Assembly: GCA_035641605.1 (NCBI GenBank)
Contig: DASQTZ010000044.1
Span: forward strand, 1-42,367
Direction: 5' to 3'
DNA from: Gaiellaceae bacterium
GTDB taxonomy: Bacteria; Actinomycetota; Thermoleophilia; Gaiellales; Gaiellaceae
DNA: 42,367 nucleotides
Within the stretch, counting starts at the first letter, position 1. Every line of letters begins with the position of its first letter. A model generated the notes under the pieces. The model was not told the origin of the DNA. It saw only the letters and a list, made by a program, of their open reading frames with translations, and searched no databases. A program made the position numbers and the translations under genes. Positions 30,943 through 36,607 of the stretch are shown here, piece after piece.

Positions 30943-33413
30943 TGGACTTCAACAAGCTGACTCTGAAGAGCCAGGAGGCCGTCGGCGCCGCGCAGGAGCT
31001 GGCGCGCCGAATGGGCAACCCGGAGGTCTATCCGGAACACCTGCTGCTCGCCCTGCTCGACCAGGAGCTTCCGCAGCAGCTCGTCCCCGACACGGCCGAG
31101 CTCCGCGTCGAAGCCGAGACGACGCTTCGCGGCAAGCCCGCCGTCCAGGGCGGCGCGCAGCAGCCCCGTGTGTCCGCCGGTTTCTCGCGGGTGCTGGATC
31201 AGGCTTTCGACGAGGCGCGCCAACTCGAGGACGACTACGTCTCGACCGAGCATCTGCTGCTCGCGCTCGACGTCGTGCCCCGCGACGAGCTGCTCGCCAA
31301 GCTTCAGCAGGTCCGGGGCGGCCAACGCGTGACGAGCCAGGATCCCGAAGGCACATACCAGGCGCTCGAGAAGTTCGGTCGCGACCTGACCGAGCTCGCG
31401 GAGCAGGGCAAACTCGACCCGGTCATCGGCCGCGACGAGGAGATCCGGCGCGTGATCCAGGTCCTCTCGCGCCGCACGAAGAACAACCCGGTGCTGATCG
31501 GCGATCCGGGTGTCGGCAAGACCGCGATCGCCGAAGGGCTCGCGCAGCGAATCGTCGCCGGCGACGTTCCGGAAGGACTGAAGGGCAAGCGGGTCTGGGC
31601 GCTCGACATCGGCGCGCTGCTCGCGGGCTCGAAGTACCGGGGTGAGTTCGAGGAGCGACTCAAGGCGGTCCTAACCGAGATCCGCAACGCCGAGGGCCAG
31701 ATCGTCCTCTTCATCGACGAGCTGCACACGATCGTCGGCGCCGGCGCGGCCGAAGGTGCGGTCGACGCCGCGAACATGCTCAAGCCGATGCTGGCCCGCG
31801 GCGAGCTGCGCGCGATCGGCGCGACGACGCTGGACGAGTACCGAAAGCACGTCGAGAAGGACGCGGCGCTCGAGCGGCGCTTCCAGCCGATCTTCGTCGG
31901 CGAGCCGTCCGTCGCCGACACGATCGCGATCCTGCGCGGCCTCAAGGAGCGCTACGAGGCGCACCACGGCGTCCGGATCCGCGACGCAGCGCTGGTCGCG
32001 GCGGCTGTGCTCTCCGACCGCTATATCTCGGACCGCCAGTTGCCCGACAAGGCAATCGATCTCGTCGACGAGGCCGCCTCACGCCTTCGGATGGAGATCG
32101 ACTCGTCGCCGATCGAGCTCGACGAGGCCGAGCGGCGCGTGCGCCAGCTCGAGATCGAGCTCGCGGCGATGGGCAAGGAGTCGAAGGAGGTGCGCGAGCC
32201 CGTCGAGCGCGAGCTCGCCGAGGCGCAGGAGCGCCGCACTGAGCTCGCCGCCCGCTGGGCGACCGAGAAGCAAGCGCTCGAGCGCGTCAAGGAAGTCATG
32301 TCGCAGATCGAGGCGCTCCGGCATGAGGCGGAGCGGGCCGAGCGCAGCGGCGATCTCCAGCGCGTCGCCGAGATCCGCTACGGCGAGTTGCCGCAGCTCG
32401 AGAAGGAGCTCGCGGCGCGCGACGGCGCCGTGGTCGACAACCCGATGGTCAAGGAGGAGGTCGACGAGGACGACGTGGCCGCTGTGGTTGCCCGCTGGAC
32501 AGGGATCCCGGTCGACAGGCTGCTCGAGGGCGAGACCGAAAAGCTGATCCACATGGAGGACCGGCTGCACGAGCGTGTCGTCGGCCAGGACGAGGCCGTC
32601 TCGGCCGTGGCCAATGCGCTCAGGCGCGCCCGCTCAGGGCTGCAGGATCCGAACCGGCCGATTGGCTCGTTCGTCTTCCTCGGCCCGACCGGCGTGGGAA
32701 AGACCGAGCTCGCCCGCGCGCTCGCCGAGTTCATGTTCGACGACGAACGGGCCATGGTCCGGCTCGACATGTCCGAGTACCAGGAGCGGCACACGGTGGC
32801 TCGGCTCGTCGGCGCCCCGCCTGGCTACGTCGGCTTCGAAGAGGGGGGACAGCTGACGGAGGCCGTGCGCCGGCGGCCCTACTCCGTCGTTCTCCTCGAC
32901 GAGATCGAGAAGGCGCACATGGAGGTCTTCGACGTGCTCCTCCAGATCCTCGACGATGGGCGGCTGACCGACGGCCAGGGCCGAACGGTCGACTTCCGCA
33001 ACACCGTGATCATCATGACCTCGAACCTGCGCTCCGCCGAGGCGATGCGCGACGTCTTCCGGCCCGAGTTTCTGAACCGGATCGACGAGGTGGTCGAGTT
33101 TCAGCCTCTTTCCAAGGAACAGCTCGCCGAGATTGTCGAGCTTCAGCTGCGGCGGCTGCGCGAGCGGCTGGCAGAGCGCGGCCTCGGCCTCGAGCTGACC
33201 GATGCCGCGAAGGAGCAGCTCGTCGAGGCGGGGTGGGATCCGACCTACGGCGCGCGACCGCTCAAGCGCGCGATCCAGCGCCTGATCGAGAATCCGCTCG
33301 CACTGCGGCTGCTCGAGGGCGAGTTCGGCGAGGGCGACACGGTGCGCGTCGATGTCAAGGATGGCGAGCTCGCGTTCGCGAGGCCCGCCGCAGCCGAGCC
33401 GGCCGCCGCCTGA
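30942..33413 (+). CDS. clpB: ATP-dependent disaggregase ClpB
   Basis: Clp N domain, two AAA+ modules ([10 protein letters not shown] and [10 protein letters not shown]) and a middle coiled coil. The ATG overlaps the hspR TAA by 1 nt. Confidence 0.97.
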
Positions 33414-33422
33414 GATGTAGCT

Positions 33423-33740
33423 CTACTCGACCCGCACCGTGCCTACCATGAAGGGTGCGTGCGGTTGGCAGTAGTAGTGGTACGTCCCGGGCTGTCGGAA
33501 GGTGTAGTCGAACGTCTGCCCGCGCCGCGAGAGCGACTTGTTGAAGCGTCCGTTCGGCCGGAGGCGGCCGAGCGAGTCCGTCGACGTCACCGTGTGGAAG
33601 ACGTTGTCGCCGTTGACCCACCGGACAGACTGGCCGGCCCGGATCTGAACCTCTCGCGGACTGAAGGCGAAGGGATGCTCGGGGTCCCCGGGTACCGAGA
33701 CGAGCCTGACCTCGGCGGCCCTGGGACCCCTTACGTTTTT
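33423..33740 (-). CDS. Type-1 copper (cupredoxin/plastocyanin-like) domain with no start codon of its own, in the -1 frame relative to the upstream ORF
   Basis: My own translation: ...AAEVRLVSVPGDPEHPFAFSPREVQIRAGQSVRWVNGDNVFHTVTSTDS...GTYHYYCQPHAPFMVGTVRVE, then stop (33423-33425). The full His/Cys/His/Met ligand set is present. There is no in-frame ATG, GTG or TTG upstream of the domain, and it is not in the supplied ORF track. Confidence 0.6.
   Translation of the reverse strand, partial: KNVRGPRAAEVRLVSVPGDPEHPFAFSPREVQIRAGQSVRWVNGDNVFHTVTSTDSLGRLRPNGRFNKSLSRRGQTFDYTFRQPGTYHYYCQPHAPFMVGTVRVE
33681..33730 (-). other. RNA stem-loop immediately 3' of the A5 tract at the frame junction
   Basis: 8-bp perfect GC-rich stem (33681-33688 pairs with 33723-33730) and a 34-nt loop containing an inner 5-bp stem, CCGAG (33695-33699) with CTCGG (33711-33715). 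On the mRNA it starts 5 nt after the AAAAA tract (33740-33736). Confidence 0.5.
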
Positions 33741-34657
33741 GAGCAGCTGGGCGGTATCGTCCGCACAAAGCTGCGATCGACGCCTGGCCTGGACGCATCG
33801 AGCGAAACCGCGAGGTGCCAGAAGCCAGCTTCACCGCGCTTGCCGCCGCGCCCCTTGGCGTAGCTCGTCGCCTTGAGCCGCTGGAAGTAGGTGAAGTCGG
33901 CGTGACCTTGGTCCTCGCGGCAGAACCGACCGCGCTTGGCGATGCCGAGGTGGCGGAGCGCTGTTGCCTTCCCAGGGTCGGCCTTGTCGAACTGGAGCCA
34001 GATGAGGACATCACCGTTCACCCAGCGGTAATGCCTTGGGGCGGTCTGGCGGCCCCGGAGCGGGTTGTCGTTGAAGAACGCTGCCAGTCGCCTGATCTCA
34101 GCGCGCGTGAGGCGGTGCTGTCCGGGTCCCTGGAAGTCGGGGCGCGGCACGCTGGATCCGCAGGCCGGCCCGGGTGTCGGCGAGAACGCATAGTCGACGC
34201 CCGGCACGACCTTTCCGGACGAGGAGTCGAACTCGTCGACTGCGACCCAGAGCAGCCAGTAGCCTTGGTTCCAACCGGGCGGCCCGCCGTGGCCAGCCCC
34301 ATAGCTTGGAGAGTTGAGCCGGTGGTAGTGCGTGAAGCCGCCGGTGGCGCCGCGCGGTTGAGCCTCGGCGCAGAACGTGCCCTTGACGGACATGCCGACG
34401 TACCGCAAGGCCCGCGCCTCAGCGACCCGCGGCCGGTCGAACTGGACGAACATCGAGACGTTCTCGTTCACCCACCTGTATTGCCTCGGCGCGACCTGAC
34501 CGCCGGTGAAGGGGTTGTCGGTGAACAGGCCGAAGAGCGACTGGATGTGGCCTGCCGGAGTGGTCGGTCGTGCGGTGGTCTGAGCTTTTGCACTTGCGAG
34601 CAGACCGGCGAGGACGAAAGCGATGAACGCGGCGGCAGTGATCCGGCTGAGCCTCAT
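33731..34657 (-). CDS. Secreted protein made of two tandem copies of an unrecognised ~110-aa domain
   Basis: GGAGGGG RBS and signal peptide MRLSRITAAAFIAFVLAGLLASAKA. Repeat 1 is IQSLFGLFTDNPFTGGQVAPRQYRWVNENV...ALRYVGM..GTFC...FTHYHRL...GYWLLWVAVD. Repeat 2 is IRRLAAFFNDNPLRGRQTAPRHYRWVNGDV...ALRHLGI..GRFC...FTYFQRL...GFWHLAVSLD. Confidence 0.7.
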   Translation of the reverse strand: MRLSRITAAAFIAFVLAGLLASAKAQTTARPTTPAGHIQSLFGLFTDNPFTGGQVAPRQYRWVNENVSMFVQFDRPRVAEARALRYVGMSVKGTFCAEAQPRGATGGFTHYHRLNSPSYGAGHGGPPGWNQGYWLLWVAVDEFDSSSGKVVPGVDYAFSPTPGPACGSSVPRPDFQGPGQHRLTRAEIRRLAAFFNDNPLRGRQTAPRHYRWVNGDVLIWLQFDKADPGKATALRHLGIAKRGRFCREDQGHADFTYFQRLKATSYAKGRGGKRGEAGFWHLAVSLDASRPGVDRSFVRTIPPSCSKT

Positions 34658-34737: not shown

Positions 34738-35505
34738 CTAGCGGCCGGCGCGCCAGCGAAGGACCGGCTGGCCATTGGGCCGCTTGCTGCCCCTTGGCTG
34801 TTCGATGAGACGCGCTTCCTGGTAGACCGGTCCCGCCCGGTTCGCCTCGAAGAGGATGAGGCCGAAGCCGCTCGAGTCGATCGGGAGCACGCCGACGAGC
34901 CGCGTTTTGCCCCCGCTCGTCAGCCAGAAGTGGTATGCGCGACCACGGCGAGGCTGGGGCAGGCGGGCCGCCATGGCAACGACGTGCGGCATGTCGGCGC
35001 GACTGAAGACCTTGCCGTACGCACGGGAGTCGGAGCCTTGGGGGGGTAGGAGGACGGCCTTCCTCGTCTCCCGGGAGTCGACGACCTCCAAGACGAGCTC
35101 CTGCTGGACCTGAAGGCGCGCGATGCGCGCGCGAAGGTCGCGCTCCTGGGAGAGGGCGTCGTCGAGCCGCGCGTCCCAGGCGGCGAACAGGGCGGCCAAC
35201 ACGACGCTGATAAGCGCGAGCGCCGCGCTCGGTCGCCACGACCAGTGGCGCGCATCGACGCGTTCATCCGGCGCGAGCTGACCGAGGAGTCGGGCCTTGA
35301 GTCCTGCCGGCGGTCGCAGGGGCGAAACGGCGCCCAGCGCCAGCGGCAACTTGTGCGCGGTCTCCACGAGCCCGGCAGCGAGGGCCCGGCACTCGTCGCA
35401 GGTCTCCAGATGGCGCACGACCGCCACGCGTTCGTCCTCCTGGAGCGCGCCGAGGGCGTACGCCTCCAATAGCTCCCGCTCCGTGTGGCTGCCGCGCTCC
35501 GTCAT
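34738..35505 (-). CDS. Anti-sigma factor (zf-HC2 N-terminus, single TM, RskA-like extracytoplasmic domain)
   Basis: HLETCDEC matches H-x3-C-x2-C, and there is one TM segment (ALALISVVLAALFAAW). The ATG at 35505 overlaps the sigma-factor stop (ATGA). The longer ORF to 35883 is an overlap artefact. Confidence 0.8.
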   Translation of the reverse strand: MTERGSHTERELLEAYALGALQEDERVAVVRHLETCDECRALAAGLVETAHKLPLALGAVSPLRPPAGLKARLLGQLAPDERVDARHWSWRPSAALALISVVLAALFAAWDARLDDALSQERDLRARIARLQVQQELVLEVVDSRETRKAVLLPPQGSDSRAYGKVFSRADMPHVVAMAARLPQPRRGRAYHFWLTSGGKTRLVGVLPIDSSGFGLILFEANRAGPVYQEARLIEQPRGSKRPNGQPVLRWRAGR

Positions 35506-36173
35506 CCTCGTCGCTCGGAAACTTCTCCCTCGAGGAGTTCTACGAAGGGTCCGTCTGTCAAGGATGCCCGGAGCTTCTGGAGACCGAGGCGGGTGCGCTT
35601 CTTGACGGTGCCCAAGGGACAGCCGAGCTTCTGTGCGATCTCTGATTGCGTCAGCCCTCCGAAGTACGCGAGCACGAGCACGCGACGCTGCTCCTCGGGA
35701 AGCTCTCGGACCGCATCGAGGAGTCCCCGCCGGCGGTCGTGCAACCACGTCGCCTCTTCGACGTCGGCGTCGGGGTCTTCGGCGCCCGCTAAGAGCGCGT
35801 CGATCGTGGCGAGGGTGTCGTGGCTTCTCCCGCGATGCCTGATCTCGTCGACGATACGGTGGCGCGCGATCGCCATGATCCACCCAGCGACTGAGCCTCG
35901 TGTTTCGTCGAACTGGGCCGCACGCTGCCAGATGCGGACGAATACGTCCTGAGCAACCTCCTCTGCCGGTCCGCGCCCGAGCGCGTGCGCTGCGAACGCG
36001 TAGACGTCGCGCGCGTAACGGTCGTAGAGGGCGCCGAAGGCCGCGAGGTCGCCCCCGGCCACCCGACCGATGAGGGCGGCCTCACCGGCTGCGCCCTGGC
36101 TGCGATCCTCCACGCCTGTTCGCTCTGACGCCGATAGTGGCCTTCCGGTTAGACGCGCGACAGTGTGAGACAC
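35502..36173 (-). CDS. ECF (group IV) RNA polymerase sigma factor
   Basis: Region 2 (DVFVRIWQRAAQFD...WIMAIARHRIVDEIR) and region 4 (LPEEQRRVLVLAYFGGLTQSEIAQKLGCPLGTVKKRTRLGLQKL). An alternative GTG start lies at 36113. Confidence 0.9.
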   Translation of the reverse strand: MSHTVARLTGRPLSASERTGVEDRSQGAAGEAALIGRVAGGDLAAFGALYDRYARDVYAFAAHALGRGPAEEVAQDVFVRIWQRAAQFDETRGSVAGWIMAIARHRIVDEIRHRGRSHDTLATIDALLAGAEDPDADVEEATWLHDRRRGLLDAVRELPEEQRRVLVLAYFGGLTQSEIAQKLGCPLGTVKKRTRLGLQKLRASLTDGPFVELLEGEVSERRG

Positions 36174-36184
36174 GGAGGCTGGTG

Positions 36185-36607
36185 CTAGACGGCGGAGTCG
36201 AGGATCTCGCCGCGCTCGAGGTCAGGAGGCGCGCCGTACACGAAGACGAGGAGCTCCTCGTCAGTCTCGTTGACGCTCTGGAGCGGCGTTCCGGCCTCGA
36301 GGTGGACGATGCTTCCCTGGCCGACCTGGTGGCGCTCCGGCGGATCGCCGAGATGCATCGTCAGCGTGCCGCGGACGACCACGAACGTCTCCTCCTGGAC
36401 GGGTTCTCGATGGCGGCGCCCTTTTGCGCCGGGCTCGTATCGCCAGAGGCTCCCGCGGGAGTGCTCGAGGCCGGCGCGCTCGGTCAGCCCCGCGACGTGG
36501 CGCTTGGCCTCGCCGGGCTCGGACGGACGTGTCTCCCAGTCGAGGTTGCCGGGTCGAATGACGGTGTACGCCACGAAGTCGAGTCTAGGGGAAGGCGTTG
36601 AGGCCAA
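36185..36607 (-). CDS. Cupin-domain protein
   Basis: 140 aa with a cupin beta-barrel pattern (...RHREPVQEETFVVVRGTLTMHLG...GSIVHLEAGTPLQSVN). It ends 11 nt before the sigma-factor ORF. TTG start, with an alternative internal GTG. Confidence 0.7.
   Translation of the reverse strand: MASTPSPRLDFVAYTVIRPGNLDWETRPSEPGEAKRHVAGLTERAGLEHSRGSLWRYEPGAKGRRHREPVQEETFVVVRGTLTMHLGDPPERHQVGQGSIVHLEAGTPLQSVNETDEELLVFVYGAPPDLERGEILDSAV

Follow-up and report, generated by a model that had tools for sequence, protein, structure and literature searches.

How is a complete copper domain translated when it has no start codon of its own? This question is raised by a locus in a 42,367-nt stretch of DNA from a Gaiellaceae bacterium (assembly GCA_035641605.1, contig DASQTZ010000044.1, positions 1 to 42,367), which is referred to here as the window. 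On its minus strand, a gene that we call ORF1 (33731..34657) encodes in frame 0 a secreted two-repeat protein of 308 amino acids (aa), as read from the list of open reading frames (ORFs) and the translation, and directly behind it, in the -1 frame, follows a cupredoxin, i.e., a type-1 copper domain. The initial annotation of the locus had pointed out the 308-aa ORF, the startless -1 cupredoxin with its four ligands, a run of five A residues (A5) at the junction, a 5-nt spacer and an 8-bp stem, and all of these were found in place. It had set three explanations side by side: a sequencing or assembly indel, a recent inactivating frameshift, and programmed or transcriptional slippage. The comparison with related loci points to programmed -1 ribosomal frameshifting, by which the gene would give both a short and a cupredoxin-bearing isoform, and we put the probability of this reading at about 0.8.

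The -1 reading frame and the candidate shift site

The search with ORF1 gave 246 homologues. Altogether 21 genome loci and 73 metagenome loci (cited below by their L numbers) were examined, in addition to contigs found by exact protein match, and the loci were classified by tblastn and reading frame. The closest homologues of ORF1 (81–89% identity) are nearly all 308–309 aa in size, with one of 287 aa, and carry no Pfam domain; several homologues at 60–65% identity are 409–410-aa 'plastocyanin' fusions. In the window and in 19 further distinct sequences, which stem from independent metagenomes and metagenome-assembled genomes (MAGs) and share 54–99% ORF1 identity, the cupredoxin lies in the -1 frame directly behind ORF1. 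These are referred to as the split loci.

In the window, the -1 frame is open from 33830 to a TAG at 33425-33423. The extension (33423..33743, minus strand) comprises 106 codons and this stop, and consists of the linker LKNVRGPRAAEVRLVSVPGDPEH followed by the cupredoxin domain (33426..33683, minus strand). The -1 frame translation matched PF00127 (Copper-bind) with E = 8e-15 and a score of 55.5 bits, where the cut-off is 21.2. The ligands His52, Cys94, His97, and Met101 of the 108-aa translation are encoded at 33596-33594, 33470-33468, 33461-33459, and 33449-33447, respectively, and stand in the pattern FHT...YYCQPH...FM, which is invariant in the alignment of 17 relatives. The nearest NCBIfam models were those of plastocyanin, amicyanin, and halocyanin, all of them sub-threshold matches below the equivalog cut-offs. 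All 17 complete distinct -1 ORFs are intact, i.e., free of stops and with the four ligands kept. The ratio of non-synonymous to synonymous divergence (dN/dS, Nei-Gojobori, 136 pairs) has a median of 0.34 and a range of 0.13–0.70, with a median dS of 0.84 and values up to saturation. Between the window and L026, which belongs to the same clade of the UCA variant described below, 18.5 non-synonymous and 33.5 synonymous differences were counted in the -1 ORF (dN 0.082, dS 0.62, dN/dS 0.13). The -1 ORF is under purifying selection, and the coding constraint on which the initial annotation had made the significance of the copper segment depend is thereby established for these 17 sequences. An intact -1 ORF with a low dN/dS argues that this frame is translated.

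The first ATG, GTG, or TTG codon in the -1 frame of the window is a GTG at 33590; since it lies past the first His ligand, a domain begun there would be incomplete. In six loci, the window among them, such codons are lacking in the -1 frame over the whole stretch between the domain and a point at least 29 codons ahead of the shift heptamer, and the GUG codons present in other loci are not conserved in position. The -1 frame is also without a signal peptide, so that the sole export signal available to the cupredoxin is the N-terminus of ORF1. Stand-alone orthologous cupredoxins carry lipoprotein signals and the fusions use the signal of ORF1. The lack of a signal in the -1 frame and the use of the ORF1 signal in the fusions suggest that export of the cupredoxin seems to need physical linkage to ORF1. 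The trans-frame product aligns with the natural fusions across the junction (CSK-NVRGPRAAEVR vs CPSGGGGQAAAEIR).

The junction of the window reads AGC UGC UCA AAA ACG UAA in frame 0 and CUG CUC AAA AAC GUA AGG in frame -1. The candidate shift site is C_UCA_AAA (33737..33743, minus strand), with the A5 run at 33740-33736, and the A_AAA tetramer is the part able to re-pair in the -1 frame. One codon past the site, the frame-0 stop UAA of ORF1 (33731..33733, minus strand) would mark the end of the short isoform. All 20 distinct split loci have the junction (U)GC YCA AAA RNN at one aligned position, and A_AAA is invariant among them. In 15 of the 20, the site is the canonical X_XXY_YYZ heptamer C_CCA_AAA followed by G, with CCC AAA as the -1 reading. 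C_UCA_AAA followed by A is found in the window, L025, L026, L031 (cut), and L033, and C_UCA_AAA followed by G in L103 and also in a strain variant of the window organism. The remark in the initial annotation that the heptamer is not canonical is thus correct for the window and does not apply to most of its relatives, where the canonical heptamer C_CCA_AAA occupies this position. In the tree, the sequences with the UCA variant fall into two separate clades, which indicates more than one origin of the variant.

AAA is a rare Lys codon, making up 23 of 287 (8%) in the coding ORFs of the window and 51 of 347 (15%) elsewhere in the split genes. That it is invariant at the junction though rare argues for selection at the nucleotide level. 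The 0-frame stop follows one codon after AAA in 17 of the 19 tabulated split loci, as well as in L103. In L030 and L043 this stop has moved 7–8 codons further downstream and the heptamer is retained, which shows that the stop codon is not essential to the signal. In L030, moreover, the -1 frame is closed by a UGA one codon before the heptamer. Together with the nearby 0-frame stops, this places the frame change within about four codons that hold the heptamer, provided that one mechanism serves all loci. In E. coli, V_VV.A_AA.R heptamers are among the most efficient shift sites and A_AA.A is the weakest of six shift-prone tetramers (PMC4066793); for CCCAAAA, the frameshifting measured there was 0.19% for the site alone, 0.44% when the IS911 stimulators were present, and 16.9% when the IS3 pseudoknot was (PMC4066793 supplement).

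The hairpin downstream of the candidate shift site

Folding of the window sequence gave a GC-rich hairpin with an outer 8-bp stem, GGGGUCCC/GGGACCCC, at 33681..33730 (minus strand), a putative 3' frameshift stimulator. The hairpin starts 6 nt past the heptamer, which is 5 nt (CGUAA) past the A5 run. It has a folding energy of -34.6 kcal/mol (z = -3.2), none of 200 shuffled sequences was as stable, and it beats all 371 other 52-nt segments of its own gene. The assessment of the relatives was likewise based on folds of single sequences compared with background segments of the same gene. In the split loci folded in this way, the hairpin starts 4–8 nt past the heptamer, mostly at 6 nt, and its energy ranges from -24 to -43 kcal/mol. 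The junction hairpin falls within the most stable 2.2% of same-gene 52-nt segments in 16 of 18 loci and is the most stable in nine, a comparison in which the junction segment, being the best of seven offsets, has a small advantage. The hairpin of L089 needs a longer segment and reaches -29.6 kcal/mol with 64 nt.

The stem sequences vary with the lineage: beside that of the window, stems were recorded for L033 and L103 (12-bp GGGGUCCCCGGG/CCCGGGGACCCC), L038 (GCCCGGG/CCCGGGC), L056 (GGGGGCC/GGCCCCC), L089 (GGGGUUCCC/GGGAACCCC), and L102 (GGCCGCGAG/CUCGCGGCC). In the fixed-register alignment eight stem pairs are changed on both sides, and synonymous double changes also occur, e.g., from GCC...UCG to GCU...UCA in L026. 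A covariance model of the junction, which realigned the sequences nearly as MAFFT had done, matched only split loci, with E-values no worse than 6e-7 against E >= 0.04 for the best other matches. Rfam has no family at the junction, with just a sub-threshold match on the opposite strand. The hairpin is present and well placed, and it may act as a stimulator. The initial annotation had left it to the orthologues whether they encode one continuous ORF or conserve the A-tract and stem; both are found, as the 20 split loci keep A_AAA, nearly all of them with the stem, and some lineages are fused.

Several observations weigh against programmed frameshifting. The C_UCA_AAA of the window is non-canonical and only its A_AAA re-pairs; by analogy with the sites studied in E. 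coli, its efficiency in this organism may be low, and it may shift more weakly than the sites of the relatives. The folding of same-gene segments gave no convincing hairpin for L043. Covariation in the fixed register is moderate, with 74% of the cells paired against 37–50% when the register is slid, and a score of 0.176 against at most 0.096. RNAalifold found no consensus structure with either the MAFFT or the Infernal alignment, and the stems shift register between lineages. Synonymous variation is not lowered in the hairpin region (proportion of synonymous differences, pS, 0.455 vs 0.494), and three in-frame fusion controls fold to -19 to -29 kcal/mol, in a branched form, at the equivalent GC-rich linker. 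Finally, the site is mutated in L101 (P0024, 1281-1386), which reads UCA AGA ACG UAG with an extra C after the stop. The cupredoxin linker of this locus is in frame 0 behind the UAG, and the contig ends 70 nt later. L101 may be decaying, it may be a step towards an in-frame fusion, or it may be a stop-codon read-through variant.

Proposed mechanism, rival explanations and history of the locus

According to the mechanism that we propose, most ribosomes would read ...UGC UCA AAA ACG and halt at the UAA, giving the 308-aa two-repeat protein. Some ribosomes would pause over the GC hairpin 6 nt past the shift site, and the tRNA-Lys on AAA would then slip one base back onto the A_AAA run. The canonical C_CCA_AAA of most relatives would let the P-site tRNA-Pro slip together with it, moving from CCA to CCC. 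After the shift, translation would go on in the -1 frame through a linker of about 20 residues into the type-1 copper domain, giving a long product of about 411 aa with the signal peptide that is common to both isoforms. The outcome would be two exported isoforms, with and without the electron-transfer domain, in a ratio set by the RNA signal. That the ribosomes shift, which of the tRNAs slips, and that the hairpin stimulates the event we infer from the sequences. As a pure speculation, ORF1 might have a metal site formed by the three His residues that are described below, and the cupredoxin might serve it.

The cupredoxin could also be translated on its own, starting at a non-canonical codon (the CUG or GUG ahead of the heptamer, or else a linker GUG) or through re-initiation once ORF1 has terminated, to give a separate small copper protein. 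Indeed, in nearly all loci the -1 frame has a CUG (GUG in L038) directly ahead of the heptamer, a GUG is present 14–16 codons downstream in some, and separate genes exist in other Actinomycetota. However, this xUG follows from the conserved Cys codon UGC, nothing resembling a Shine-Dalgarno sequence could be read ahead of it in the alignments, and no canonical start is conserved, six loci having none. The product would be without a signal peptide, unlike the stand-alone orthologues with their lipoprotein signals and the fusions with the signal of ORF1, and the invariance of the rare AAA and of the A_AAA run would be left unexplained. We consider independent translation quite improbable. In transcriptional slippage, the RNA polymerase would drop one A or add two, and part of the mRNA would encode a single-frame fusion. 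Such slippage is used in some bacterial genes, e.g., Thermus dnaX (PMC5009743), and in the split loci a homopolymeric A run lies exactly at the junction. The downstream hairpin and the X_XXY_YYZ heptamer are, on the other hand, marks of ribosomal slippage. The run also has just five A residues in the window, and four in most relatives, whereas productive transcriptional slippage is known from runs of about 8–9 or more. A transcriptional origin of the shift is very improbable on these grounds, so that from the third explanation of the initial annotation the ribosomal part is retained and the transcriptional part, with a run of only 4–5 A residues, is given up.

If a sequencing or assembly indel were the cause, ORF1 and the cupredoxin would in truth be fused in frame to give about 410 aa, and in-frame fusions of 409–410 aa do exist in related lineages. 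The sequence is, however, found in near-identical form in many soil metagenome runs, and the contigs of six independent runs (X1, X2, X4, X9, X11, X7) from at least four studies are without an indel over 33730-33745; these are assembler contigs and not raw reads, and the weight of the check rests on independence across samples. Contigs from two runs of the RNA-run search, whose type is unspecified, also span the junction without an indel, which is no proof of transcription. The -1 relation is the same in twenty distinct relatives that differ by many substitutions, also where the run is A4, and the fusions have another junction sequence, which lacks the A run. Since independent metagenome contigs carry the same A5 and the A4 relatives keep the frame relation, the indel can be dismissed for practical purposes. 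The sole variants near the A run are substitutions, namely 33735 G>C (ACG to AGG in the coding sense, as in L026) and 33736 T>C (A5 to A4G). The shift site is thus polymorphic at the strain level in soil populations, and every variant keeps the A_AAA run and the frame relation. An inactivating frameshift, finally, would leave the cupredoxin part as an untranslated, decaying remnant, and the loss of the domain in L036 and L099 and the disturbed junction of L101 would be in line with it. A remnant would hardly be stop-free with four ligands in 17 diverged sequences at dN/dS values of 0.13–0.70, nor would the frameshift be expected at an identical position in all loci. The inactivation had been thought of as recent, but some 20 distinct sequences, with ORF1 identities as low as 54%, have the split in common, and purifying selection acts on the -1 frame, which makes decay extremely improbable.

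Apart from the split loci, the cupredoxin and ORF1 were found in other arrangements. In-frame fusions are present in L035/L064, L004 (a Solirubrobacteraceae MAG), L098, and all the Chloroflexota/Thermomicrobiales members. In Kribbella, Micromonosporaceae, Jiangellaceae, Lapillicoccus, and others, the conserved Cys is the last residue of ORF1 (...PPDC-TGA), which is followed by a separate cupredoxin gene with a lipoprotein signal, and the overlap of the two genes is often TGAtg or TGAcgtg. The loci with this arrangement are L006-L019, L046-L050, L076, and L078 (e.g., L046:2958-3380), with a lipoprotein signal of the form ...LLAGC.... That the two modules are linked in three different genetic ways argues that they work together. 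No cupredoxin is present in L036 and L099, which lie inside the split clade, or in 18 more distant loci. Among the 120 listed cluster representatives of ORF1, 40 end in C-x-K-x-stop, 33 end at the Cys, and 26 are fusions; four end in C-P-K-A plus a short tail and three in [AV]-P-K-[AG]. In the 90% cluster of the window itself (48 members), the listed members are 307–309 aa in size.

In the IQ-TREE phylogeny of the ORF1 part, all split genes were placed in one clade with a support of 100/99. Nested in this clade are the in-frame fusions L098/L035, as sister (97/97) to the split loci L045/L005/L042/L044, and also the domain-less L099 and L036, and the approximately unbiased (AU) test rejected the split genes as an exclusive clade (p = 2.4e-6). 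None of the nested lineages without a -1 cupredoxin, i.e., neither the fusions nor the domain losses, has the slippery motif. In the outgroups, the cupredoxin is either encoded by a lipoprotein gene of its own or fused to ORF1. The simplest history would be a single origin of the frameshift configuration, after which a fusion replaced it once and the domain was lost at least twice; as the ORF1 tree is unrooted apart from the chosen outgroup, this direction of change is tentative.

A more far-reaching and rather unlikely idea is that the frameshift is an old dosage device, at least of the age of the split clade, that would provide a fixed, sub-stoichiometric, tethered copper domain on a secreted metalloprotein of a fold unseen in the PDB. 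Its efficiency could respond to the supply of the rare tRNA-Lys(UUU), or to copper via the sigma factor module upstream of ORF1, and the frameshift would repeatedly have been replaced by fusion, separate genes, or domain loss. If this were true, the locus would represent a new case of bacterial recoding together with a new kind of two-centre copper enzyme.

Known systems, ORF1 and gene context

To our knowledge, programmed frameshifts are rare in ordinary non-mobile bacterial genes, the cases being dnaX, prfB, copA, csoS2, cdd, the chelatase-like genes, and a few others. Each known case is informative on recoding signals and on why cells want two products in a fixed ratio. The comparative support is unusually rich here, as one family has four solutions (frameshift, in-frame fusion, separate genes, and loss), which offers a direct test of what the ratio is for. 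The results also call for a correction of annotations: of the 120 listed cluster representatives, about one in three is annotated as a hypothetical protein of 308 aa, and a truncated 'plastocyanin' fragment is called beside ORF1 where contigs were read. Furthermore, they tie a protein of unmatched fold to copper redox chemistry and to a conserved sigma/anti-sigma module in abundant uncultured soil Actinomycetota.

In its working, the cassette resembles orfA/orfB of the IS3 family or the 'reversed' form of dnaX, and it is not a member of those gene families. The IS3-family elements (IS3, IS911, IS150) have an A_AAA_G/A tetramer or an X_XXA_AAR heptamer as the shift site, a 0-frame stop close behind it, and a 3' hairpin or pseudoknot after a short spacer, and their frameshift product fuses the upstream ORF to a startless downstream -1 ORF (PMC4066793). 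In contrast to these, our locus shows no mobile element and no transposase (HTH, DDE) domains; it encodes a secreted protein and a cupredoxin, its sigma/anti-sigma context is conserved, and the gene follows the host gene tree. The similarity to dnaX, which encodes tau and gamma, is greatest for the reversed form, in which frameshifting yields tau and the stop codon of gamma is located past the shift site. Here too, a chromosomal gene with a -1 shift and a hairpin a few nt downstream gives short and long isoforms that share the N-terminal part, the long one adding C-terminal domains, and different lineages arrive at this pair of products along other genetic routes (PMC5009743). The E. coli dnaX site is, however, A_AAA_AAG, the protein family and its cellular location differ, and no upstream Shine-Dalgarno-like stimulator was seen by eye in the junction alignments of the split loci.

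E. coli copA, which encodes CopA and CopA(Z), is likewise a chromosomal gene of copper biology from which a -1 frameshift gives two proteins per mRNA (PMC5009743, PMC7558416). There, the shift truncates the product to a 70-aa chaperone, while at our locus it would extend the product by a cupredoxin, and the proteins are unrelated. The kind of evidence, namely ORFs that overlap, purifying selection on a slippery site, and a structure of weakly conserved sequence, is shared with the Mg-chelatase-like genes, csoS2, and the GeneTack clusters of Antonov et al. 2013 (PMC5009743), among which the present family has no mention. The full text of PMC3711429 contains no mention of copper, plastocyanin, cupredoxin, or azurin. 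No prior description of a frameshift in such a cupredoxin-bearing gene was found in the full-text literature, of which the coverage is incomplete, so that this absence is not proof. The domain itself agrees with the small blue copper proteins (plastocyanin, amicyanin, halocyanin, pseudoazurin) in its PF00127 match and its His/Cys/His/Met set. It differs from them in falling below the cut-offs of the named subfamilies, in having no signal or start of its own, and in being attached to a protein of unmatched fold.

ORF1 itself had no match in Pfam, NCBIfam, or the PDB sequences by profile and sequence searches. Its N-terminus resembles a signal peptide (MRLSRITAAAFIAFVLAGLLASAKA, 34583..34657, minus strand, as read from the translation), with a cleavage site that was inferred and not derived from a prediction tool. 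The AlphaFold (AF2) model of ORF1 is confident, with a predicted local distance difference test score (pLDDT) of 89.7 and a predicted template modeling score (pTM) of 0.84, and shows two similar beta-rich repeats; the signal segment forms a helix (residues 5–22) of low pLDDT. No match to the model was found among the PDB folds (best E 0.2, template modeling score 0.16). The protein consists of a domain of about 130 aa that is duplicated in tandem. In the alignment of homologues, H110, H112, and H123 of repeat 1 and four Cys residues are invariant, and repeat 2 is without the His residues of repeat 1.

Upstream of ORF1 and on the same strand, an RskA-like anti-sigma factor gene with a zf-HC2 domain adjoins it (34738..35505, minus strand; NCBIfam NF052375, E = 7e-21), and the conserved module begins with the gene of a SigK-like extracytoplasmic function (ECF) sigma factor (35502..36173, minus strand; NCBIfam TIGR02937, 108 bits vs a cut-off of 42.9). 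The start of the anti-sigma gene at 35505 is deduced from an ATGA overlap with the stop of the sigma gene, and the ORF as listed (381 aa) is probably 127 codons too long. The order sigma, anti-sigma, ORF1 is also found in L001, L098, L099, L103, and others, and the sigma and anti-sigma pair stands ahead of ORF1 in relatives of every architecture checked. In L001 (58-1298), a thioredoxin/AhpC-like gene and a gene for a DsbD/CcdA-type membrane protein lie just upstream of this module, and such neighbours fit an envelope redox role. A cupin ORF (36185-36607, minus strand) lies upstream of the sigma gene in the window, and in L099 (4927-5481) and L100 a Cupin_2 gene comes after ORF1, in a relative without the cupredoxin. 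On the other side of the locus, the convergent clpB ends at 33413, and the TAG of the -1 frame is 9 nt from the clpB stop.

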